14,077 nucleotides of DNA from a virus: IMG/VR virus record IMGVR_UViG_3300037264_007252; one strand, given 5' to 3'. The translations under genes were made by a program, and so were the position numbers. The notes under the pieces were generated by a model that was not told the DNA's origin, did no database searches, and worked only from the letters and a program-made list of their open reading frames with translations. Shown in pieces: positions 3,697 through 12,943 of this stretch (position 1 is its first letter; each line of letters begins with the position of its first letter).

Positions 3697-3744
3697 GTGC
3701 GTCCAGAGCAACGAAACGAAAGAGCAGAGGAAAGGGGATACGAC

Positions 3745-6378
3745 ATGAGCGAACCACAGAGGATGGAGAAGCGCGATCTGGTGCTGGCACCTGGCACCTA
3801 CGCGTACATGCAGGACGTGACCAAGGGCGTGGTCAAGACGTACACCGGCCCGACGGTGATCAACCCGACGGCTCAGGAAGTCCCGGTCGTCTACGACCCG
3901 GACGAGCGAACGTTCAAGCGCGCGGACAGCCTGGAGGCGGCGCTGTGCACGGCGGTGGTGGCCGACGAGGGCTTCTACATCGTGCTCAAGAACCCGGCCA
4001 AGCAGAACAAGCATCCCGATGACGGGGCAACGAGCATGAGCGCCGACCTCGACGTCGGCCGCGCAATCATCATCCCCGGTCCGGCCGTGTTCGCCCTTTG
4101 GCCGATGCAGGCCGCCGAGGTCGTCCAGGGCCATCATCTGCGCTCGAACCAGTACCTGCTGGTTCGCGTCTACAACGAGGACGAAGCCCGGGCGAACTGG
4201 AAGAAGGCGGTCGTCAAGCCCGCTGAGGCAACCGCCGTCGGGGTCACGCCGCCCGAGAAGCCAGTCGTGACTGCACCGCCGCCTGCCGATCTCACCGTCG
4301 GCAAGCTGATCATCATCCGAGGCACGGAAGTCTCGTTCTACATCCCACCGACCGGCGTCGAGGTCGTGGCGGACAGTGCAAACACGTACGTGCGCGACGC
4401 GCTCACGCTGGAGCGTCTGGAGTACTGCATCCTCGTCGATGAGAACGGCAAGAAGCGCTACGAGCGCGGTCCGCAGGTCGTGTTCCCGATCCCGTCCGAG
4501 CGCTTCATCGAGCGCGAAGCCAAGGGGCACGCTCGGCGCAAGTTCTCGGCCATCGAGCTGAACGAGATCCAGGGCCTGCACATCAAGGTGATCGCTGACT
4601 ACAAGGACGAGCGCAGCGGCAAGGATCACAAGGCGGGCGACGAACTGTTCATCACCGGGAAGGACGAGGCGATCTACTTCCCCCGCGAGGAACACTCGCT
4701 CATCAGCTACGACGGCCGATCCAAGCACTTCGCCACGGCCGTCCCGGCGGGCGAGGCACGCTACGTGATGAACCGGGTCACCGGTGAAATCCGTACGGAG
4801 CGCGGCCCCAAGATGCTGCTCCCGGACCCAAGGATGGAGGTGATCGTCCGCCGCGTCCTGTCAGACAAGCAGGGCACGCTCTGGTACCCAGGCAACCCGG
4901 AGGTGCTCGCCTACAACCAGTGGCTGCGTGACGTTCTCTCGAAGGCCCCGACCACGCGCTCGGGTGCGGTCTCCGAAGGCGACTTCGAGCGCAACGCGAA
5001 GGTGGCAACGCAGCAGGCACAGCGAGGTGGTGGTGCCGCGCCCGTCGCAGCGGTCATGGCAATGTCGAACCAGGGCTACGCTGCGATGGAGAAGAGCCTG
5101 GTGTCGGCCGACCAGGCTGCGATGATGGGTGACGAGTTCACTCGGGGCTCGAACTACACCCAACCGCGCTCGATCACGCTCCAGACCAAGTACGAGGGCG
5201 CGCCTGCGATCCAGGCGTGGACCGGCTACGCGGTCATGATCGTGTCGAAGACCGGCAACCGCCGGGTCGAGATCGGGCCGAAGAACGTGCTCATGGAGTA
5301 CGACGAGGCACTGGAAGTCCTGGAGCTGTCAACGGGCAAGCCGAAGACGACCGACAACCTGCTCAAGACCGTCTACCTGCGCGTCCTCAACAACAAGATC
5401 GGCGACATCGTCACTGACATCGAGACGAGTGACCACATTCGACTCAACATCAAGCTCTCGCTGCGGGTCAACTTCGAGGGCGAGCCGTCGAAGTGGTTCG
5501 AGGTCGAGAACTACGTCAAGTACCTCACCGACCACGTACGTTCGGTGCTCAAAGGCACGGTCAAGAAGCAGAACATCGAGCAGTTCTACGCGGGCGCGGT
5601 CGACATCATCCGCGACACCATCCTCGGCAAGCAGGTGGAGAAGAACGAGCGGCCGGGCATGACGTTCAAGGAGAACGGCATGCGCGTCACCGACGTCGAG
5701 GTGCTGGAGGTGAAGATCACCGACCAGACCGTCGCCGGGCTGCTGGCTCAAGCGCAGCACAACGTCGTCAAGGGCAACATCGAGCTGGCCCAGGCAGCAC
5801 GGGACCTCGACGTGGCCCGTCAGCAGGAGGAGTTCACGCGGCAAAAAGCCGACTTCAAGGCCGTGACGCTGAAGCGCGTACTGGGGCTGGAAGTCGACGA
5901 GATCGTCGAGAAGCAGAAGGTCGCGGAGACGCGGATCCGGACGCAGCGGGAGGAGCAGTCCCAGCTCAAGGAGCTGGAGGTCGAGAAGCAGGCCGTGATC
6001 GATACAGCGTTCGCGGCGAAGCTGAAGCGCGAGAAGGATGAGGCCGATCAGAAGCAACAGATCAACGCCGCGCTCCAACAGCTCACGATCGAGCTGACCA
6101 AGGCCGACGCAGACGCGGTGGTTCAGCGCTTTGCAGCAGCTCAGCCGGGCTTCGCTGAAGCGCTTCGCGCGCTCCAGAACGACGACGTGTTCGTCAAGGT
6201 CGCACAGGCATGGAGCATCCAGCGCGTGATCGGCGGCGAGAACGTATCCGACGCCCTCAAGCGCGTGTTCGAGGGCACGCCGGTCGGTACCATCGTCGGC
6301 AAGCTGCTCGGCAGCAACGGCAACGGGCAACACGAAGGGGTGAAGCCGACGCCGTCGGCGCCCGCCACCCGGCCGTAG
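3745..6378 (+). CDS. mvp: Major vault protein (MVP) homolog, full length (877 aa): MVP repeat domains + SPFH-like shoulder + coiled-coil cap-helix
   Basis: ATG 3745 is preceded by a strong purine-rich Shine-Dalgarno (GAGGAAAGGGGA). The listed ORF begins at GTG 3697, immediately after the upstream stop. Segments match mammalian MVP as recalled from memory. 'DLVLAPGTYAYMQDVTKGVVKTYTGPTV' resembles the MVP N-terminus '[29 protein letters not shown]'. 'AGDELFITGKDEAIYFP' and 'ARYVMNRVTGEIRTERGPKMLLPDPRMEV' resemble 'AGDHWLIRGPLEYVP' and '[29 protein letters not shown]'. 'RRVEIGPKNVLMEYDEALEVLELSTGKPK...IVTDIETSDHIRLNIKLSLRVNFE' resembles the shoulder '[29 protein letters not shown]...[23 protein letters not shown]'. 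About 150 residues of E/Q/K/A-rich coiled coil sit where the cap-helix lies. Total length is close to human MVP (893 aa). Confidence 0.8.
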   Translation: MSEPQRMEKRDLVLAPGTYAYMQDVTKGVVKTYTGPTVINPTAQEVPVVYDPDERTFKRADSLEAALCTAVVADEGFYIVLKNPAKQNKHPDDGATSMSADLDVGRAIIIPGPAVFALWPMQAAEVVQGHHLRSNQYLLVRVYNEDEARANWKKAVVKPAEATAVGVTPPEKPVVTAPPPADLTVGKLIIIRGTEVSFYIPPTGVEVVADSANTYVRDALTLERLEYCILVDENGKKRYERGPQVVFPIPSERFIEREAKGHARRKFSAIELNEIQGLHIKVIADYKDERSGKDHKAGDELFITGKDEAIYFPREEHSLISYDGRSKHFATAVPAGEARYVMNRVTGEIRTERGPKMLLPDPRMEVIVRRVLSDKQGTLWYPGNPEVLAYNQWLRDVLSKAPTTRSGAVSEGDFERNAKVATQQAQRGGGAAPVAAVMAMSNQGYAAMEKSLVSADQAAMMGDEFTRGSNYTQPRSITLQTKYEGAPAIQAWTGYAVMIVSKTGNRRVEIGPKNVLMEYDEALEVLELSTGKPKTTDNLLKTVYLRVLNNKIGDIVTDIETSDHIRLNIKLSLRVNFEGEPSKWFEVENYVKYLTDHVRSVLKGTVKKQNIEQFYAGAVDIIRDTILGKQVEKNERPGMTFKENGMRVTDVEVLEVKITDQTVAGLLAQAQHNVVKGNIELAQAARDLDVARQQEEFTRQKADFKAVTLKRVLGLEVDEIVEKQKVAETRIRTQREEQSQLKELEVEKQAVIDTAFAAKLKREKDEADQKQQINAALQQLTIELTKADADAVVQRFAAAQPGFAEALRALQNDDVFVKVAQAWSIQRVIGGENVSDALKRVFEGTPVGTIVGKLLGSNGNGQHEGVKPTPSAPATRP

Positions 6379-6596
6379 CGCAGGTACGTGGGGTTCCAGG
6401 CCGTGAAAACGTCATCGGACGCTGGAACAGCCAAGGCAGCGAGGGACGCCTCAAAACCACGCGGGGACGCTCGCGTGTCTAAGAGGCAGGGGCACCTTGG
6501 CATTTTCGTTTTCGATCTGAACGGCTACGTTGGGATCCAATCGAAGTGGCGGCCGATAGAGGGTGATCTGCGCCAAGCCACGAACGCCAGCGAAGC

Positions 6597-6605
6597 TGGT
6601 AAACT
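6597..6605 (+). promoter_or_regulatory. Possible extended -10 element (TGG TAAACT) about 55 nt upstream of the zinc-ribbon gene
   Basis: TGnTAnnnT pattern in the 280-bp gap after the MVP gene. No convincing -35 box. Confidence 0.2.
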
Positions 6606-6659
6606 GTGATCCGGGCAGCGACTAGCCCAGCGACTGAACTGAAAAGGACGAGAGACATC

Positions 6660-6974
6660 ATGACGATTGAGAATCAGGACCAGCAGCTCGTGTGCATCGA
6701 CTGCAAGCAGGAGTTCGTCTTCACGCAGGGGGAGCAGAAGTTCTTCGCCGAGCGGAACTTCACTCCACCGAAGCGCTGCAAGCCCTGCCGCGACGCCAAG
6801 AAGGCGGACAAGGCACAGGGAAGTGGTGGCGGTGACAACGGCGGCGATCGCGTTGCCGCTGGCAACGGTGGCGGCAACGACAACGCAGCCTTCTGGACCC
6901 GAGGCGACAACCGGGGAGGTAGCCGGGACGAGAACGAGGGGCGTGGCGGCGGGAACCGCCGTAGGCGCAGGTGA
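6660..6974 (+). CDS. Zinc-ribbon protein (CIDC-x17-CKPC) with a C-terminal Gly/Asn/Arg-rich (RGG-like) low-complexity tail; putative nucleic-acid-binding
   Basis: ATG 6660 with an AAAGGA upstream. The motif 'LVCIDCKQEFVFTQGEQKFFAERNFTPPKRCKPCRDAKK' is the conserved zinc-ribbon module I recall fused to some bacterial DEAD-box helicases and cold-shock proteins. The tail 'GSGGGDNGGDR...GNGGGNDN...RGGSRDENEGRGGGNRRRRR' is RGG/Gly-rich. Confidence 0.6.
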   Translation: MTIENQDQQLVCIDCKQEFVFTQGEQKFFAERNFTPPKRCKPCRDAKKADKAQGSGGGDNGGDRVAAGNGGGNDNAAFWTRGDNRGGSRDENEGRGGGNRRRRR

Positions 6975-7129
6975 AACTGCTCCAGATCGCGCGGTATTCG
7001 ATCTCGTGCGCTGAATGCGGCTTCGTCTGGTCGACCATTGCACTGCGTCGTCGTGGTGACCGTGAGTTCGACAAGGCGAAGCGTCGGCACGTTCGTGTGC
7101 ACGCCACGAAACGGCCGAAGAAGCAGTGA
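6971..7129 (+). CDS. Tiny basic ORF (52 aa), 'VKLLQIARYSISCAECGFVWSTIALRRRGDREFDKAKRRHVRVHATKRPKKQ', not in the supplied track
   Basis: GTG 6971 forms a GTGA overlap with the stop of the zinc-ribbon gene. High third-position GC. Basic tail. It is in frame with, and 12 nt upstream of, ORF 7142. Confidence 0.3.
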   Translation: MKLLQIARYSISCAECGFVWSTIALRRRGDREFDKAKRRHVRVHATKRPKKQ

Positions 7130-7141
7130 CGGTCGCGTCCC

Positions 7142-7621
7142 ATGCAACTCTCGCAGAAGTACGTCGTCTTGATCGCGCGAGCACGGCTGGTTCAAGCTCG
7201 TCGTGATGACACGAACGGCGCCGCTCTTGCCGATGTTGTCGGCCAGCGCATCGCTTGGACTGCACTTGCGGCGAGCGCAGACGCAGGGCCAGGCGCGTTG
7301 CGTGGGCGTGCACTATGGCTCATCGGTTGGACACTCGGGCAACTCGTCGGGCAAGGTTTTGAGCCCGAGGAGATTGCCCGGCCCGAGGGCCTCGATGCGA
7401 TCGAGGCCGTTGCCGTCGTCGCAGCGATCCAGAAGCGGCGCAACATCGCACACGTGAACCAACGCCCGCGTGGGCCGACGTTTGGTGGGACCGCACCGCG
7501 TCAGCAGTTGTTCATGCCGGTGAACGCTGGTAGGCCGCTGGCCGCGACCTGGGCTGCCGTCTACAAAGCGGCGCGTACCGAGCTAGACTGCTGCTTCGAT
7601 CCAGCCGGACGCCGACAGTGA
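7142..7621 (+). CDS. Hypothetical protein
   Basis: ATG 7142. Its stop forms an ATGA overlap with the next gene. Third-position GC is moderate. The antisense alternative (6525..7313 minus) is Ala/Arg-rich junk. Confidence 0.4.
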   Translation: MQLSQKYVVLIARARLVQARRDDTNGAALADVVGQRIAWTALAASADAGPGALRGRALWLIGWTLGQLVGQGFEPEEIARPEGLDAIEAVAVVAAIQKRRNIAHVNQRPRGPTFGGTAPRQQLFMPVNAGRPLAATWAAVYKAARTELDCCFDPAGRRQ

Positions 7622-8409
7622 TGGACGAGACTCGCGCAGCACAAGTCGCAGACGCGATCGCCTGGTTGGAACTAACCGGGCGTGTCACGCACGTGCCCGT
7701 CACACGTCTCACCCGGCGGCTGCGTGAAGGCGACGAAGCTCTCATCGACGCCATGTTGGCGCTACTCACCATCCCAGGGCGTCCCGGTGAACGTCTGGAG
7801 GTCTTACGCGATTTCCTGATCACGCAAGAGTTGGGCGAGCCCGAGGAATTACGTAGCAGCAGCGACTGGACCTCGTCGCCGTCACCGTTCAACGTCCCCG
7901 AGTGGGCACTACTCCCCTGGCTCGGGAAGGACATCAAGCGGCTACGCATCCGCCAGTTCTACGACTGTCTGCTCGTCGGTGGCGACGGCCGGTTGCCGGG
8001 GACGACAGGGGCAACGGTGCCGATGCGGGCAGCAGGACAGTGGCGGCTGTTCGGTAACACGCACATCGGTGAGCCGCTGATGACGAACCTGCAAGTCGCC
8101 GGGCAGTTTTGCTTCGATACGATGTTCGTCGCGACGGCCTGGTGGCTGGTGACGCTCAACTCTTGGGCGAGCGCCGAGGCATTCTTCGCGCGCAGCCACG
8201 TCTCGTTCGAGGTCGGTGATCGGCCCGAAGCTGTCGTGCAGGCCCTGCCACTATTTCGCGCACACCAACCGATCTTCGTGCCGGTCCCGCACCGTCAGAA
8301 CGTCGCCGTGGTGCTCAACTTCCATGGCGATCTGCCATTGCCGAGCGCCGGACCGTCGATCCCGGTGTACGTCTACGTTGAGGGCTGGGCAGCCAAGGAC
8401 GTGCGGTGA
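7618..8409 (+). CDS. Hypothetical protein (263 aa)
   Basis: ATGA overlap start. Protein-like composition with several Trp/Phe-rich stretches. No family recognised. Confidence 0.5.
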   Translation: MMDETRAAQVADAIAWLELTGRVTHVPVTRLTRRLREGDEALIDAMLALLTIPGRPGERLEVLRDFLITQELGEPEELRSSSDWTSSPSPFNVPEWALLPWLGKDIKRLRIRQFYDCLLVGGDGRLPGTTGATVPMRAAGQWRLFGNTHIGEPLMTNLQVAGQFCFDTMFVATAWWLVTLNSWASAEAFFARSHVSFEVGDRPEAVVQALPLFRAHQPIFVPVPHRQNVAVVLNFHGDLPLPSAGPSIPVYVYVEGWAAKDVR

Positions 8410-8414
8410 CCGTC

Positions 8415-8840
8415 TCACCACCGTCTGCGGCGGGAGCGTGGCGCGTCATCTTCCTTCTGACGCCGTGCCTCCTCGTAAGCCTCGTTGCGCCGACGGTCTG
8501 CCTCGCTCTGCCAACCCTTCCCACGACAAGCGAAGCACATGGAGATCACACCCTCCTCGGCTTCGTGGGTACGTCCACGTGGCGCGATGCCGGTTCCACC
8601 GCACTTGTTGCACACCCAAAATGGTGCGTCTTCGCGCATGAGCCCAACAATGACGTGCGCGGCGTTGAACCAATTTTCGGGCACAAGCTCTACTGGCTCA
8701 CGGTAGTCTTCGTGATCCGGTCCACGATAAAGCTTGCGTGCAATTTTCTCGGCTTCAGTGTCAAATTTTTGTGACGGCAACCCAGACTGCGCACGCAGGA
8801 TTGCATAACGACGGCGTATCTCGTCGATGGAGCGGCTCAC
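8415..8840 (-). CDS. Hypothetical zinc-ribbon protein (CNKCGGTG...CFACRGKG) with a basic C-terminus; locally lower GC
   Basis: GTG start at 8840 with GCCAGGACG upstream. Protein-like composition. It converges on gene 7618..8409 with only a 5-bp gap. Confidence 0.5.
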   Translation of the reverse strand: MSRSIDEIRRRYAILRAQSGLPSQKFDTEAEKIARKLYRGPDHEDYREPVELVPENWFNAAHVIVGLMREDAPFWVCNKCGGTGIAPRGRTHEAEEGVISMCFACRGKGWQSEADRRRNEAYEEARRQKEDDAPRSRRRRW

Positions 8841-8913
8841 GGGCGTCCTGGCGTTACACGCTGACCGCGCTTGAACACGGCTACCGCTCGTCTTGTGGAT
8901 CGACGGTGGTCAC

Positions 8914-9072
8914 CTATTCACCGTAGCTGACCATCTGCCCATGGTCACAGACGATGTAGTGACGGTCACCGGAGCGATCGGTCAGCACCACAGCAGCATG
9001 ACGGCGCACTCCGTCACTGAAGCCGCCCGTCGACCACTTACCACCTTTGGCAGCTTGCGTGCGTGCACGCAT
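8914..9072 (-). CDS. Possible small hypothetical protein ('...WSTGGFSDGVRRHAAVVLTDRSGDRHYIVCDHGQMVSYGE'); the longer listed ORF runs to 9252 and would overlap gene A by 71 nt
   Basis: The C-terminal half is protein-like. Third-position GC is only moderate and the start is ambiguous. Confidence 0.25.
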   Translation of the reverse strand: MRARTQAAKGGKWSTGGFSDGVRRHAAVVLTDRSGDRHYIVCDHGQMVSYGE

Positions 9073-9181
9073 CGCGCTAGCGGGCCCTTTGCGTGCCCAC
9101 CACGTCTGGGCTTCTTGGATGGTTGGCGTCCTCGTGCACCGTTGTGGCTTCTTCACGCAGTTCTCCTTCGCGCCTTGCGTT

Positions 9182-9673
9182 TCATACGAAGCTCTTGCGG
9201 TAGAGCTTCTCGGCGCTTCGACAGTCACCGGTGAAGGCTTGCTGGACGGCAAGATGCAGCCGCCGCTCAGAGGTCATGTCACACGCCGCGCTCTTCTTGC
9301 ACGACCGGAGCTTCATAGCGATCTTGTCGTAGTTCCCGCACCTGGGTGCATGCTGGGCCGCCCGCTCGGTCATGCGTTCCCACGGCTCAGCCTCGACCTC
9401 GTCCCAGTCATCTTCATAGTCGCCAACACGACCAGAGTTTTTCGTCGCGATACGCTTGGCGGCGCGTCCAGTGCTGACGGCCAAGAACACGCCCAGGGCG
9501 ATAAGGCCGAGAGTGATCGTTGTACCGACGACCCACATCGCGACAAGCGATTCGGCCGACGGTATGCCCTCGGCGCCAAGACCGAACATCTGATTCGGAC
9601 CGCTTTCGCCGAACCCGGGCGAAGCGGTCTCGGTGCCGTGCCCGTCCATCGTCGTGTGGGTAATCGCGAGCAC
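9182..9673 (-). CDS. Small membrane protein, paralog A (N-terminus MLAITHTT-MDGHGTETASP, GFG/GLG motifs, one TM helix)
   Basis: GTG start sits inside a 56-nt block nearly identical to the 5' end of the next gene. TM helix 'LVAMWVVGTTITLGLIALGVFLAV'. Good third-position GC. Confidence 0.55.
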   Translation of the reverse strand: MLAITHTTMDGHGTETASPGFGESGPNQMFGLGAEGIPSAESLVAMWVVGTTITLGLIALGVFLAVSTGRAAKRIATKNSGRVGDYEDDWDEVEAEPWERMTERAAQHAPRCGNYDKIAMKLRSCKKSAACDMTSERRLHLAVQQAFTGDCRSAEKLYRKSFV

Positions 9674-9680
9674 GGGTTAC
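9625..9680 (-). repeat. Copy 1 of a duplicated 5' gene segment (56 nt)
   Basis: 'cggtctcggtgccgtgcccgtccatcg' plus 'tcgtgtgggtaatcgcgagcacgggttac' recurs at 10201..10227 and 10270..10298. The two blocks have 2 and 0 mismatches respectively. In copy 2 they are separated by a 42-nt in-frame insertion. Confidence 0.7.
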
Positions 9681-10291
9681 GCTTTCTTCGGCTTGCCGAA
9701 CCCTTGAGCGACAGCAATCACCGGTGTGATCACAGGAAACAGCGACCCCAGGACGAACCACCCGATCGCCCAACCTACGCTCTGGTTTCGCTTGTAGCCG
9801 TGGTACGCGGATGCCGCGCCAGACACCGTCGACAGAACGCTCCAGATGATGACTGCCGTACTACGCGTCCGTTTCGTACGTGCGGCACGCTCCAGCGCAT
9901 CCGCAACGAGGCTTGCATCACCGCCCTCGGCGATGATCGCCGCCGCGAGCTTCTTGCGCGTGCCAGCGTCGAACTGTGCCAAGAGCTTGGCGAGGTCGAA
10001 CGCGTTGACATGGTCGAACGCACCAAACTTTGTGCGCGGCGCAATTCGCGCTGCTGTCTCCTGAATCTGCTCATCCGTCAACGCCGCGCCGAGGCCCATG
10101 ATGTCCGGCTTGCCGAACCCGGGCACGTTCCACGGCACCTTCTGTACGGAGCCGCCCCCGCCCCGGACGAAGACCGTTTCGTGAGGCGTGACGGGTGAGA
10201 CGGTCTCCGTGCCGAGCCCGTCCATCGGCGTGAGGAACTCCTTCGGCGGCAGCCTGAAAACTTCGTCGGTCGTGTGGGTAATCGCGAGCAC
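9677..10291 (-). CDS. Small membrane protein, paralog B (N-terminus MLAITHTT + 14-aa insertion + MDGLGTETVSP; C-terminal double TM; GFGKP motif twice)
   Basis: Its stop TAA is followed by CCC and then the GTG start of paralog A. Its 5' region duplicates that of A. C-terminal hydrophobic segments 'AVIIWSVLSTVSGAASAY' and 'VGWAIGWFVLGSLFPVITPVIAVA'. Confidence 0.55.
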   Translation of the reverse strand: MLAITHTTDEVFRLPPKEFLTPMDGLGTETVSPVTPHETVFVRGGGGSVQKVPWNVPGFGKPDIMGLGAALTDEQIQETAARIAPRTKFGAFDHVNAFDLAKLLAQFDAGTRKKLAAAIIAEGGDASLVADALERAARTKRTRSTAVIIWSVLSTVSGAASAYHGYKRNQSVGWAIGWFVLGSLFPVITPVIAVAQGFGKPKKA

Positions 10292-10298
10292 GGGTTAC
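10201..10298 (-). repeat. Copy 2 of the duplicated 5' gene segment (27 nt + 42-nt insert + 29 nt)
   Basis: Direct comparison of the two loci on the plus strand. The matches include the stop codon, the CCC spacer and the start codon of adjacent genes. Confidence 0.7.
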
Positions 10299-10582
10299 AC
10301 TTTCCGGCCGCGTACGACGTAGCCCAAGGCGAAGCCGGACACGGCCCCGAACAGGCCGGTGATGATGACCAGGGTCGCGGTCAGGCTCTTCGAGAAGCCG
10401 GTGTCGGCGGCTTCCTGGCCGAGGCCGTGTATCGGGTAGCCCTGTTCGATCGCGTGCGTGCCGAGGCCGTGACCGTAGACGAGCACGGGCCCGTTTTCGG
10501 CCGCACGCGCAAAGCCCGCGCTGTTGGCCGTGTAGCCGTTGGCGCGGCTGGCGCCGTTCTTCACTCTGGTCGCCGTCAGCAT
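10295..10582 (-). CDS. Small membrane protein C (HGLGTHAIEQGYPIHGLG motifs, C-terminal TM helix), first gene of the minus-strand trio
   Basis: ATG start next to the divergent promoter region. Its stop is followed by CCC and then the GTG of paralog B. TM helix 'LTATLVIITGLFGAVSGFALGYVV'. Confidence 0.5.
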   Translation of the reverse strand: MLTATRVKNGASRANGYTANSAGFARAAENGPVLVYGHGLGTHAIEQGYPIHGLGQEAADTGFSKSLTATLVIITGLFGAVSGFALGYVVRGRKV

Positions 10583-10636
10583 GGACCTACTCTATCACAC
10601 CCACGATCGCTCGCGCGATCGAGTAGAATCGCCTCT
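10583..10636. promoter_or_regulatory. Divergent promoter/operator region. Each side has a TAnnnT -10-like hexamer 6-9 nt before its start codon (TAGAAT for the plus gene, TAGAGT for the minus gene), suggesting leaderless mRNAs. They flank a CGATCGC-N4-GCGATCG palindrome.
   Basis: Sequence is 'CTACTCtatcacacccaCGATCGCtcgcGCGATCGAGTAGAATcgcctctATG'. GAGTAG is present in inverted orientation on both sides. Neither start has a Shine-Dalgarno. Confidence 0.35.
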
Positions 10637-11266
10637 ATGGCCGCCCAGTTCGAGCGCAGCGTTGAGCGCTGGCGCAAGCCCCTGGAGAAGCTCGCCGACT
10701 GGGTGCCGCTCGACTTCCTGCTCGCCTGGGTCGACAAGGAATCCAACGGCCTCCCACATGTCGTCTCATCCATCGGTGAGCGCGGCCTGTTCCAGGTCCA
10801 CAAAGACGAAGTCCCGTACCTCAAGCTCTCGGAGGCCGAGTTCCAGAAGCTGACCAAGGACACGGCGCTGGCACTCAAGACCGGCGTCAAGCAGGCCAAG
10901 CTCTACGCAAACTTCTCGAAGAAGTTCCTGGCCGAGGTCAGGGTCGAGTGGCACGGCCAGGACTTCTGGAAACTGGTCAAGCTCCACCACGCTGCCTTCG
11001 CCATGCCCCGGTATACGCTGCTCGCGTTCAAGCGCGAACATGGGCGTGGTCCGGCGAGTTGGGACGAGCTGTACAAGTTCGCTACGAAGATGGCTGCGGA
11101 GAAGAAAGACCTGATCCCCGACAAGCCGAAGTTTTCGGCCCGGCTGCGGGGACTGACCGCGAAGACGTTCAAGAACGCCGACACGGTCGGCAGCGTCGTG
11201 CCTGCAATCGCTGCTACGGACTTGCCCGCGCTGAGAACCTTCTTCCGTCTTCTAGCGGTGGCGTAG
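10637..11266 (+). CDS. Lytic transglycosylase (SLT / lysozyme-like) domain protein, no signal peptide (endolysin-like or virion-associated)
   Basis: 'DKESNGLPHVVSSIGERGLFQV' fits the SLT family signature E-S-x(7-9)-S-x-x-G-A-x-G-L-M-Q, with the catalytic Glu in 'ES'. The part of listed ORF 10274..11266 upstream of 10637 is antisense to genes B and C and was rejected. Confidence 0.5.
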   Translation: MAAQFERSVERWRKPLEKLADWVPLDFLLAWVDKESNGLPHVVSSIGERGLFQVHKDEVPYLKLSEAEFQKLTKDTALALKTGVKQAKLYANFSKKFLAEVRVEWHGQDFWKLVKLHHAAFAMPRYTLLAFKREHGRGPASWDELYKFATKMAAEKKDLIPDKPKFSARLRGLTAKTFKNADTVGSVVPAIAATDLPALRTFFRLLAVA

Positions 11267-11292
11267 CCCGGTCATCGAGATCACCGAGATCC

Positions 11293-11298
11293 GATAGA
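11293..11298 (+). promoter_or_regulatory. TAGAAT -10-like hexamer 19 nt upstream of ATG 11318 (AGGAGA Shine-Dalgarno in between). The same 'GATnnnTAGAATC' context occurs upstream of the 10637 gene.
   Basis: 'gatccgaTAGAATCcgaaacAGGAGAaaccATG' compared with 'gatcgagTAGAATCgcctctATG'. Confidence 0.25.
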
Positions 11299-11317
11299 AT
11301 CCGAAACAGGAGAAACC

Positions 11318-11521
11318 ATGCCCCGCTTCAACGTCATGCTCACGATCACCGCGCCGGTGTCCACCTCGATCGAAGTCAATGCGCCGAACGCACGTACGGC
11401 CGCTGCGAAGGCCGTACAGCACGTGTTGGAGAGTCCCGACTACCGGATCCTCGACTTCGACGGCAACTCGATCGACATCCTCAAGGACGACGTCACCGTC
11501 GACGAGGTCGAACCCGCGTGA
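11318..11521 (+). CDS. Small acidic hypothetical protein (67 aa)
   Basis: ATG with a strong AGGAGA Shine-Dalgarno. High third-position GC. Its stop forms a GTGA overlap with the next gene. Confidence 0.5.
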   Translation: MPRFNVMLTITAPVSTSIEVNAPNARTAAAKAVQHVLESPDYRILDFDGNSIDILKDDVTVDEVEPA

Positions 11522-11895
11522 GCCGCGCGACCGCGATCCTGCGTGCCGTCCGGTCATGCTTGACCGACGAGCTGCGGCTACCGAAGTATCGCGGGCACCC
11601 GAACCCGCTGCGCGGGCACTGCTCCGTCGCGAGCGAGGCCGTCTACTTCCTGCTCGGCGGCAAGCACAGCGGCTGGACGCCGACGACGTTGCGTGTCGGC
11701 GACGAGGTCCACTGGTTCCTCCGACAGCATGACAGTGGTGAGATCATCGACCCGACCGCTGGGCAGTTTGCTTGCGAGCTGGACTACGGAGAAGGGCGCG
11801 GTCGGGGTTTCCCGACGCCCCGAGGTGGCGCGAAGCAGCCACCACCGTCGAAGCGCGCTGCGAAAGTCATCGCCTGCGCACGGAGGAAGCTGTGA
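11518..11895 (+). CDS. Hypothetical protein (125 aa)
   Basis: GTG 11518 forms a GTGA overlap. The part of listed ORF 10948..11895 upstream of 11518 overlaps two other genes and is Arg-rich junk. Confidence 0.45.
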   Translation: MSRATAILRAVRSCLTDELRLPKYRGHPNPLRGHCSVASEAVYFLLGGKHSGWTPTTLRVGDEVHWFLRQHDSGEIIDPTAGQFACELDYGEGRGRGFPTPRGGAKQPPPSKRAAKVIACARRKL

Positions 11896-11908
11896 AAGGA
11901 GACCGTCG

Positions 11909-12082
11909 ATGACACGCCCTCTGCTCCTCGACAAGGACACCGTTCTGGATGACCTCGACGAAGTGCTGGGCTACCTCCGACAGCTTCGCCGCGATATCGT
12001 TGCGTCCCGAGAGCTGCCCCAACACGTCTTGCGAACTGCTGTCGAAGAGGGTGTGCGGCTTCTGGAGCACGTAGGCCGGTGA
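11909..12082 (+). CDS. Small hypothetical protein (57 aa)
   Basis: ATG 11909 with an AAAGGAG Shine-Dalgarno 8 nt upstream. High third-position GC. Confidence 0.45.
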   Translation: MTRPLLLDKDTVLDDLDEVLGYLRQLRRDIVASRELPQHVLRTAVEEGVRLLEHVGR

Positions 12083-12636
12083 CTCCAAACCGCACAAAGC
12101 CACTTGGCCTCGCCGTACCCGCGTGGTGGCGTCGTCCATCACCACGTCCGTCCGAGCACGCCATGTGCTACCGGCGCAAGGCCGACGCGCTCAACGTCTT
12201 CAAGGACTACAACCATCACGTGACTGAGAACTGGGGCGGCCTCTTGCAGCCGGACTCGACAGGCGCGACGTTCGACGCGATCAACGAGCGGTACGGACTA
12301 CGCGGCAAGAAGAAGGTCAAGTCCTTCGCCGAGGCGTACTGGGTTGCGATGCCACCGAACCCGCCCTACTGCCTGGACCGGATCGACATCAAGACGCTGA
12401 ACGAACTCCCGCCCGCGCAGGAGCACGGCGGCTTTCGTCTCCCCGACTACGTCTACGATGAGATCGCGAAACGTGAAGAGGCGCGATACTACCGCGAGCA
12501 GCTCTCACGGCGCGTGAAGCGTGAGCTTCGACGCGGACTGCATGACGCGGCAGGCTCGCGTGTCGTCGACGTCGCGCTTGTTGCAATGGGCCTCGGCGGC
12601 CTCGCGCTTGCCGTCTGGGCTGCACGAAGGAAGTAA
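12079..12636 (+). CDS. Hypothetical protein with a C-terminal TM anchor (VVDVALVAMGLGGLALAVWAA)
   Basis: GTG 12079 forms a GTGA overlap. Protein-like composition. The start is uncertain; alternative in-frame Met codons lie downstream. Confidence 0.45.
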   Translation: MTPNRTKPLGLAVPAWWRRPSPRPSEHAMCYRRKADALNVFKDYNHHVTENWGGLLQPDSTGATFDAINERYGLRGKKKVKSFAEAYWVAMPPNPPYCLDRIDIKTLNELPPAQEHGGFRLPDYVYDEIAKREEARYYREQLSRRVKRELRRGLHDAAGSRVVDVALVAMGLGGLALAVWAARRK

Positions 12637-12688
12637 GAACGCAGCGGTGATACACTCGATTCCACCGAACGAAAAGGAAGGTGAAGTG

Positions 12689-12943
12689 ATGACACGCAAG
12701 TCCAAGTCCAAGTCCAAGCCCTCCTACTGGGGCGTCTACGCCGACGGTAGGGCAGCGACAGGAAGCACCAACAAGAAACGAGAAGCTCAGGCGCTCGCTG
12801 CGCTGATCTCGATGCGTGGCATCGGTGTTGGCCGCAAGGTCTGCATCATGCAGCGCAGCAGCAGCGGCGACAAGCCGACGGGGGAGTGCTTCGAGAAGGG
12901 AATCCTCTACAAAGACGGCAAAGCGCGGCCGTCGCCGTTCTAG
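12689..12943 (+). CDS. Small basic hypothetical protein (84 aa; N-terminal KSKSKSK)
   Basis: ATG 12689 with an AAGGAAGGTGA Shine-Dalgarno. The upstream part of listed ORF 12521..12943 overlaps the previous gene and was rejected. Confidence 0.5.
   Translation: MTRKSKSKSKPSYWGVYADGRAATGSTNKKREAQALAALISMRGIGVGRKVCIMQRSSSGDKPTGECFEKGILYKDGKARPSPF

Follow-up and report, generated by a model that had tools for sequence, protein, structure and literature searches.

Genes A and B, two adjacent membrane-protein genes on the minus strand of the window (the whole 14,077-nt stretch of viral DNA that was analysed), share a near-identical 36-nt tract that spans the stop-start junction in front of each gene. 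We consider it probable that the similarity at their 5' ends reflects old paralogy, deletions in gene A and a recent short-tract gene conversion or ectopic recombination between the tandem paralogs. Recent gene conversion or homologous recombination, which the first-pass annotation had proposed, is the best account of the tract (the junction plus eight codons), including its non-coding positions. Short-tract ectopic gene conversion and mosaicism between phage tandem paralogs are established, and what we describe is ordinary evolution of tandem gene families, not a new regulatory device or molecular mechanism. The case gives a small-scale picture of phage membrane-protein arrays in which a conserved module is joined to varied anchors and may be eroded by microhomology deletions and patched by tiny recombination tracts that carry the translation start region.

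Gene layout and protein architecture

Genes C, B and A lie consecutively on the minus strand in an operon that opens with gene C, and TAA-CCC separates each pair (Table 1). All three have the third-position GC enrichment typical of real genes; the GC content of the window is 63%. The open reading frames of A and B both begin GTG CTC GCG ATT ACC CAC ACG AC, three bases past the upstream TAA, and the shared start recorded in the first-pass annotation is thus seen in both. The same starts were picked by two gene callers (Logan contig L008; JGI protein P0121). A Shine-Dalgarno sequence is missing at both the C/B and the B/A junction, and the gene downstream, which starts at 9156, is preceded by AAGGAG.

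Gene C encodes a protein with two GLG motifs, a single hydrophobic helix at the C-terminal end (aa 66-90, from hydropathy) and the tail RGRKV, and its orthologs hold the same position in loci L010 and L011. The gene B protein begins with a complete N-terminal module (aa 1-60). A helical domain, predicted with confidence, follows at aa 70-140, and the C-terminus is a membrane hairpin of two helices with the motif YHGYKRNxSVGW...FPVITPxIAVAQGFGKPK. In its AlphaFold model pLDDT is >90 at aa 70-140, and helices are placed at 145-169 and 172-195. The gene A protein retains only a remnant of the module (MLAITHTT-MDGHGTETASP-GFGES). It has a single transmembrane helix (aa 42-69), and its C-terminal domain contains four cysteines. 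Hydropathy peaks lie at aa 42-69 in A, 174-198 in B (in addition to helix 145-169) and 66-90 in C, and all three tails are basic.

Table 1 Features of the gene C-B-A region and its divergent neighbour (window coordinates)
Feature	Position	Strand	Evidence or remark
Block 3 in gene A	9608..9620	-	Identical to gene B copy, 13 nt
Block 2 in gene A, codons for MDGHGTETASP	9617..9649	-	
Gene A, 163 aa	9182..9673	-	ORF and translation; GC3 0.76; P0091 alignment; hydropathy
Block 1, B/A junction copy	9651..9686	-	Repeat search; end of B AAA GCG TAA, CCC, GTG, A codons 2-8
Gene B, 204 aa	9677..10291	-	ORF and translation; GC3 0.78; homologs
Block 3 in gene B, G CCC GGG TTC GGC	10112..10124	-	13 nt
72 nt in B, absent from A (VTPHETVFVRGGGGSVQKVPWNVP; most conserved part of the module)	10121..10192	-	4-nt microhomology CCCG at ends
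Block 2 in gene B, encodes MDGLGTETVSP, where the module's conserved core begins	10193..10225	-	
42 nt in B, absent from A (linker DEVFRLPPKEFLTP)	10226..10267	-	Placement ambiguous by 2-3 nt
Block 1, C/B junction copy	10269..10304	-	Repeat search; end of C AAA GTG TAA, CCC, GTG, B codons 2-8
Gene C, 95 aa (MLTAT...)	10295..10582	-	ORF and translation; GC3 0.89
Divergent control region between gene C and the SLT-like gene	10583..10636	.	Conserved in L009, L010 and L011
Putative lytic transglycosylase, 209 aa	10637..11266	+	ES...GLFQ motifs; borderline Pfam SLT

Three shared blocks and two length differences

A gapped alignment of the 5' regions of A and B resolves their similarity into block 1, a 42-nt gap, block 2, a 72-nt gap and block 3, all collinear and with both gaps in A. 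Beyond the N-terminal module no similarity between A and B was detectable. The two copies of block 1 are identical at 35/36 bases (97%) and contain an exact core of 30 nt. This 30-mer, GTAACCCGTGCTCGCGATTACCCACACGAC, occurs exactly twice in the window, on the minus strand at 9651-9680 and 10269-10298, and none of 200 shuffled controls matched it. The repeat search thus recovered the repeat where the first-pass annotation had placed it. The exact 29-mer given there is indeed identical in both copies, one base short of the full core, and the 27-mer with two mismatches and the 42-nt length difference both agree with the alignment. Block 3 (GCCGAACCCGGGC) and the second in-frame length difference, the 72 nt between blocks 2 and 3, had been overlooked.

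Block 2 differs between A and B at 5/33 bases, which amount to two synonymous codon differences and two amino-acid replacements; its region aligns without gaps over 44 nt (9616-9659 vs 10192-10235, 84%). On the plus strand, the imperfect direct repeats TCGGCGTGAGG and TCGGTCGTGTGG lie on either side of the 42-nt segment of B. The linker that this segment encodes is homologous to VDVFEPPAPEFFTP of protein P0091 and to EVGAPPQALSTP of the gene B ortholog in L011.

A conserved N-terminal module on different membrane anchors

We found 271 homologs of gene B in metagenomes. Alignments of this family contain two conserved parts, the N-terminal module, usually with an ML(A/T) start, and the C-terminal hairpin. 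The module comprises ~60 aa, with an MLA(I/V) start, a variable linker and the core LGxETxSPVxPHETVFVRGGGGSxQKVPWNVPGFG, which is beta-hairpin-like, and is kept in ~18 B-type homologs. When its profile was compared by HMMER with 1.8 billion representative proteins, 11 proteins were retrieved. Among the relatives, the module occurs on at least four different membrane anchors: for example, P0124 and P0125 combine it with a single transmembrane helix and a basic tail, and P0126 consists of the module and the hairpin alone. P0124 occupies the same syntenic slot as the B-type proteins P0004 and P0013: a DUF6011 gene precedes it, and a gene of ~320 aa and a GDSL lipase come next. Since one slot holds differing anchors, we take the module to be an N-terminal unit that is old and exchangeable. 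Behind this common module, A and B have different membrane-protein bodies; they are not diverged copies of one gene, and in this respect the earlier description of proteins that have diverged downstream of the repeat has to be replaced.

P0091, the only A-type protein found besides gene A (70% identical over aligned positions), has an A-type body behind a complete module, MLAIDFKSSGQVDVFEPPAPEFFTPMDGLGAETVSLVKPHETVFVRGGGGSIQKVPWNVPGFGES. The longer form is also carried by many B homologs. Because P0091 has the full module and linker, gene A is a truncated form from which 42 and 72 nt were deleted. This corrects the logic of the first-pass annotation, in which the 42 nt had been inserted into gene B. 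The comparison also defines an uncharacterised protein module and a membrane hairpin (YHGYKRN...FPVITP...AQGFGKPK), both of which are common in large uncultivated phages as well as in putative prophage regions of Gemmatimonadota, Planctomycetota and Myxococcota genome bins.

Block 1 is more alike within the window than among orthologs

Within block 1 the TAA, the CCC spacer, the GTG and all seven sense codons are identical. The chance of seven sense codons coinciding, given identical residues, is P = 0.0027. One of these codons is the rare ATT, which accounts for 9/115 Ile codons of the window genes. The residues THTT are not conserved; P0091 reads DFKSSGQ there.

Orthologous junctions differ in sequence from those of the window. 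L010 and L011 have the C-B-A order and the divergent SLT-like gene of the window; their C/B junction reads AAGAAGGAGTGATCC ATG CTC GCC CTC GAA, and the B/A junction of L011 reads GGGAGAAGTAGTT GTG CAC GCG ATT GAG. The corresponding starts are ATG CTG GCG ATT in L009 and GTG CTA GCG GTT in L021. Judged by these comparisons, the closest loci retain the amino-acid motif, not the bases. The 36-mer was not found at the equivalent junctions of L010, L011 and L013, the three closest loci, and the 29-mer, searched with up to three mismatches, was not found in the 20 other loci fetched. For block 1 the likeness of A and B within the genome exceeds their likeness to orthologs (L009, L010, L011 and L021 all differ). 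In blocks 2 and 3, unlike block 1, the divergence between A and B is at the ortholog level. Because the closest loci differ and the 29-mer is absent from the 20 other loci, block 1 appears to be lineage-specific and young, a pattern typical of ectopic gene conversion or recombination. Taken alone, 1/36 against 5/33 mismatches is not a significant difference; with two copies in one genome and a tract of 36 nt there is little statistical power.

A short tract probably copied recently between junctions

Under the favoured explanation, the A and B bodies would first have shared the old, exchangeable module of ~60 aa, and the module of gene A would then have been eroded by the in-frame deletions of 42 and 72 nt, each at microhomology. 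A recent event would have copied ~36 nt from one junction to the other, comprising the last two or three codons of the upstream gene, the TAA, the CCC, the GTG and codons 2-8, either by gene conversion or by template switching in repair or replication. The end of the tract would mark the point at which the 42-nt deletion in A breaks the homology between A and B. As a by-product, A and B would have acquired the same unusual stop-3 nt-GTG junction. Since this junction stands before both genes without a Shine-Dalgarno sequence, the two are presumably translated by the same termination-reinitiation coupling. The arrangement resembles such coupling in bacterial and phage operons in having TAA, 3 nt and GTG without a Shine-Dalgarno sequence twice running; it is unlike the other coupled genes of the window, which appear from their ORF coordinates to overlap at stop and start, and here coupling is inferred from sequence.

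The A junction was probably the donor, with copying in the direction A to B. At three diagnostic sites, assessed against three comparator loci, the tract has the A-lineage states GTG, GCG and ATT, as opposed to B-lineage ATG CTC GCC CTC, and directly past the tract the B-lineage sequence GAA GTT (Glu-Val) returns. It is the combination of A-lineage states within the tract and B-lineage sequence right after it that suggests A as the source. Copying in the reverse direction, with a template switch at the same time, is also possible and likewise fits a tract end at the deletion breakpoint.

The locus is fluid in other respects. L009 has A followed by C, as opposed to C-B-A in the window, L013 contains four tandem hairpin paralogs, and in L004 a similarity of older date (KKKG*-MSYH) spans a junction and includes synonymous differences. 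Searches of viral and metagenome contigs with an exact 23-mer recovered no close strain variants, and searches of metagenome and viral contigs with the A-type and SLT-like proteins found no close relatives. The window resembles known cases of short-tract ectopic conversion in phage tandem paralogs in that near-identity is sharply bounded and includes non-coding and synonymous positions, the neighbours are otherwise dissimilar, the tract is absent from orthologs and there are deletions at microhomology. It differs from them in that the tract is very short (~36 nt), is centred on a stop-start junction and is present in two copies only. The two copies form direct repeats at a spacing of 618 nt. 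Recombination between them would therefore excise exactly gene B, and an intact A would then come directly after C. The first-pass annotation had expected loss of gene A, and the segment between the repeats is gene B.

Alternative explanations

A recent one-step partial tandem duplication of the junction together with the whole module, followed by fast decay of the A copy through two deletions and several substitutions, is a fairly unlikely origin of the similarity. The three blocks are collinear and together ~93% identical, as such a duplication would leave them; the two private replacements in the A remnant (L to H, V to A) are consistent with relaxed constraint, and junction-spanning duplications occur in related arrays. 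However, the module of A shares with P0091 the A-specific sequence GFGES, the FGLG region that follows and GCG ATT at codons 3-4. This A-specific sequence, common to gene A and P0091, indicates that the module was on A before the window and L009 lineages split. Moreover, the divergence of A and B in block 2 is not below that of A and L009 (5/34 each), whereas block 1 is near identical.

We also think it unlikely that the 36-mer is a cis element, kept by selection for a role as nucleic acid. Such an element might be a coupling or reinitiation signal that sets equal output of C, B and A, or, in a variant covered by the same judgement, the binding site of a phage regulator or small RNA. In keeping with either form, the 36-mer crosses the stop-start junction, both junctions lack a Shine-Dalgarno sequence, unlike other genes of the window such as that at 9156, and CTCGCGAT and ACCCACACGA loosely resemble CTCGCGCGAT and ACACCCACGA, parts of the conserved divergent control region. 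In L010 and L011, however, the orthologous junctions have AAGGAG or GGGAG Shine-Dalgarno sequences and lack the 36-mer; it is not conserved in L013 or L004 either, and it has only two copies in 14 kb. RNA folding of the junctions against shuffled sequence gave no stable or shared fold (z-scores 0.29, 1.45, -0.09 and 0.74), a search of the junction against Rfam returned 0 matches, and a tRNA search found none. With the 36-mer absent from the junctions of L010, L011 and L013 and from the 20 other loci, z-scores around zero or higher and nothing in Rfam, the conserved cis element or RNA structure offered as a second option in the first-pass annotation is not supported. Because the orthologous junctions use ordinary Shine-Dalgarno sequences, the identical junction looks like a consequence of recombination and not its cause. 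A repeated phage promoter or multi-copy regulatory motif was rejected, as the window has just two copies and the 20 other loci have none.

A broader reading, which we regard as quite unlikely, is that the MLA(I/V) start and the module form a portable 'address tag' moved among anchors, that the junctions are selected and that the repeats act as a switch deleting gene B. If this were true, the tag could serve, for example, in assembly, processing or partner binding; large phages of this group would move it by recombination at gene 5' ends, and the identical stop-CCC-GTG junctions would keep the tagged proteins in fixed ratios.

Amino-acid conservation combined with codon bias is very unlikely to have produced the identity alone. 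It does explain blocks 2 and 3: the MLA(I/V) start and the core of the module are kept across genomes with synonymous differences. Between B of the window and the A-type gene of L009, the module is 84% identical in nucleotides, with 23/32 identical codons among identical residues, and the orthologous A bodies of the window and L009 are at the same level (65/94 identical codons). As far as sequence comparison goes, blocks 2 and 3 fit selected coding sequence, and synonymous differences are plentiful in other genomes. The first-pass annotation would have given up its proposal if amino-acid conservation alone explained the identity in related genomes with synonymous differences; this is the case for block 2 and the MLAI codons but not for the stop, the spacer and THTT. 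Coding constraint gives no account of the TAA, the CCC, the GAAAG upstream, the codons of the unconserved THTT or the rare ATT.

The sequence is a metagenome contig, and assemblers often go wrong at repeats. A chimeric join or an assembler-made repeat is nevertheless extremely unlikely, since Logan contig L008 (run SRR11849544; possibly the same sample) is 100% identical to window positions 4057-12864 and the exact repeat spans no more than 30 nt. The two assemblies come from different pipelines and agree fully over 8.8 kb, the A and B ORFs are intact with normal GC3 (0.76 and 0.78), and homologs exist.

Genomic context and possible function

Gene C and the SLT-like gene diverge from a control region that contains the palindrome CGATCGC-N4-GCGATCG and the TAnnnT boxes TAGAGT and TAGAAT, 6-7 nt before each ATG. 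Based on this spacing we infer leaderless transcripts; a simple sigma-70 scan of the region found no canonical promoter. In the SLT-like translation KESNG...GLFQV is visible, and the Pfam SLT match (PF01464; E = 3e-4, 20.8 bits) is below the cut-off of 21.3. No support for this protein was found in PDB, PHROG or NCBIfam. Its ortholog in L010 is 66% identical and has the same divergent position.

Searches with the A, B and C proteins gave no match in PHROG and NCBIfam, and in Pfam only a sub-threshold match of C to LrgB (17.2 bits vs a cut-off of 25). Gene B protein had no match among INPHARED phages and plasmid records, and no informative structural neighbour was found for its helical domain. 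None of the three proteins matched a described holin or spanin family in PHROG, Pfam or NCBIfam. In hydropathy they have the properties expected of holins, being small proteins with at least one transmembrane helix and a charged C-terminus. Those of spanins are missing: there is no lipobox and no N-terminal transmembrane helix in A, B or C. Cysteines are absent from B and C and lie at positions 112-151 in A.

Among relatives, some B-type genes stand first in operons that also contain M23 peptidase and GDSL lipase genes, and others lie within arrays of small, C-terminally anchored membrane proteins with GLG motifs. This context is weakly in favour of a role of the trio in the cell envelope or in lysis. 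Like tandem holin-like genes of lysis cassettes, the trio consists of small membrane proteins in a row beside a cell-wall enzyme, here the SLT-like gene, and the neighbours in relatives are an M23 peptidase and a GDSL lipase. Gene B departs from such genes in its size, which is large for a holin, and in its soluble N-terminal part of 140 aa; the trio forms an operon divergent from the hydrolase, is not co-transcribed with it and has no holin family match. A holin-like role is a possibility suggested by context. Our tentative working guess is that the three are co-translated inner-membrane proteins that work with wall-degrading enzymes. Another possibility considered was that the GLG and LGxET motifs contain a protease site, either phiKZ-type (S/A/G-X-E) or double-glycine.

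The gene family is an uncharacterised one of large uncultivated phages. Homologs of gene B are found on ~221-kb contigs, with the same length in three samples, on IMG/VR viral contigs and in Gemmatimonadota, Planctomycetota and Myxococcales genome bins. An actinobacterial host had been considered from the TAnnnT leaderless-type promoters and the DUF6011 and GDSL lipase neighbours, and was dropped in view of the homologs in those bins. The window DNA had no match among sequenced phages. Elsewhere, the window encodes a full-length Major-Vault-Protein-like protein; in the phage collection this protein matches only three 'uncultured phage' genomes of 462-735 kb.

Arrays of small membrane-protein genes in related loci

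Tandem arrangements of small membrane-protein genes are present in two of the related loci. The gene products of the L004 array, on an IMG/VR contig, each contain at least one GLG or GVG motif and carry at their C-terminus a transmembrane helix with a basic tail, and one gene has the B-type hairpin, the two-helix membrane hairpin that ends gene B. Two adjoining genes of this array are similar across their stop-start junction (KKKG-stop-MSYH), with synonymous differences, and this similarity is older. In the L013 array, on a JGI contig, the membrane hairpin (YHGYKRN...FPIITP...GYGKPK) is found in all four tandem paralogs, with nucleotide identities of 71-84% across the hairpin. In the array taken more widely, several genes begin with ML (MLT, MLS or MLG): two that encode the hairpin (at 6001 and 6689) and two farther downstream (at 7758 and 8647). 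Some genes start 1-3 nt past the preceding stop.

Features in the window and in related loci
Feature	Location	Strand	Remarks
Major Vault Protein (MVP) homolog, 893 aa	window 3697..6378	+	Pfam domains and alignment to rat MVP
Treble-clef zinc-finger protein, 122 aa	window 6606..6974	+	Pfam zf_Tbcl, E=1.9e-16
ORF	window 8406..8774	+	chosen by the Logan gene caller
ORF, 141 aa, CxxC...CxxC	window 8415..8840	-	weak PHROG matches to Q-like antiterminators
Divergent control region	window 10583..10636		between gene C and the SLT-like gene; conserved in L009 1-45, L010 730-774, L011 5-49
Array of eight or more small genes in succession	L004 2938..8994		IMG/VR contig 3300049484_000302
Four tandem hairpin paralogs	L013 5609..7745		JGI contig 3300009506 Ga0118657_10000917
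Two module-bearing genes with different bodies	L009 46-240; L021 2080-2200		both from JGI sample 3300010391
Enzyme genes after a B-type or module-bearing gene	L001 10641..13033; L012 6670..8318; L019 5358..7062		~221-kb, 196-kb and 48-kb relatives

The N-terminal module in other genes

The module, the N-terminal unit of about 60 aa common to genes A and B, recurs in L009 and L021. These two copies are 87% identical in nucleotides and share 26 of 31 codons, including a rare ATA Ile codon. If both genes belong to one genome, they would be a second instance of within-genome homogenisation of the module. The module profile also weakly matches the repeated blades of beta-propeller-like proteins (P0127-P0130; ...VTAVRDGGGNLKLISWNV...), which suggests that the module core TVFVRGGGGSVQKVPWNV forms a beta-hairpin with a glycine turn.

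Neighboring enzymes and recurrent relatives

Downstream of the B-type or module-bearing gene, L001, L012 and L019 all encode a protein of ~320 aa and a GDSL lipase; among the three, an M23 peptidase follows in L001 only. The genes at this position are wall- or lipid-degrading enzymes. In L001, neither the M23 peptidase nor the ~320-aa protein has an N-terminal signal peptide, and both finish with a transmembrane helix followed by an Arg-rich tail, a predicted topology that is unusual for secreted hydrolases.

Contigs of 221,422-221,661 bp turn up in three different samples, and the B hairpin is also present on a 220,727-bp contig of a 'Myxococcales' MAG (all among L001, L002, L003 and L015). 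The ~221-kb contigs probably represent one complete genome, of a phage or a plasmid, whose place in this MAG may be a binning error.

The divergent control region

A palindrome, CGATCGC-N4-GCGATCG, is conserved in the control region of the window and of L009, L010 and L011, with a spacer that differs among genomes; it looks like an operator. A simple sigma-70 scan of the region found no canonical promoter. TAnnnT boxes (TAGAGT and TAGAAT) end 6-7 nt upstream of each of the two divergent ATG starts, which suggests that the mRNAs in both directions are leaderless.

Other genes of the window

The two ORFs at 8406..8840 overlap on opposite strands and have GC3 values of 0.61 and 0.67, which do not decide between them; the coding strand is ambiguous.

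The 893-aa protein contains MVP_shoulder (E=1.9e-27) and Vault_3 (E=4e-9) domains and aligns with residues 151-791 of rat MVP (E=1.4e-13). It is a Major Vault Protein homolog of full length. ORFs 43% identical to it over 90-96% of its length occur in three records of uncultured phages (LR756500, LR756501 and LR756503; 462-735 kb). Since MVP homologs of viruses and bacteria were described in earlier preprints (bioRxiv 10.1101/2023.11.10.566534 and 10.1101/872010), the window protein is a new member and not a first.
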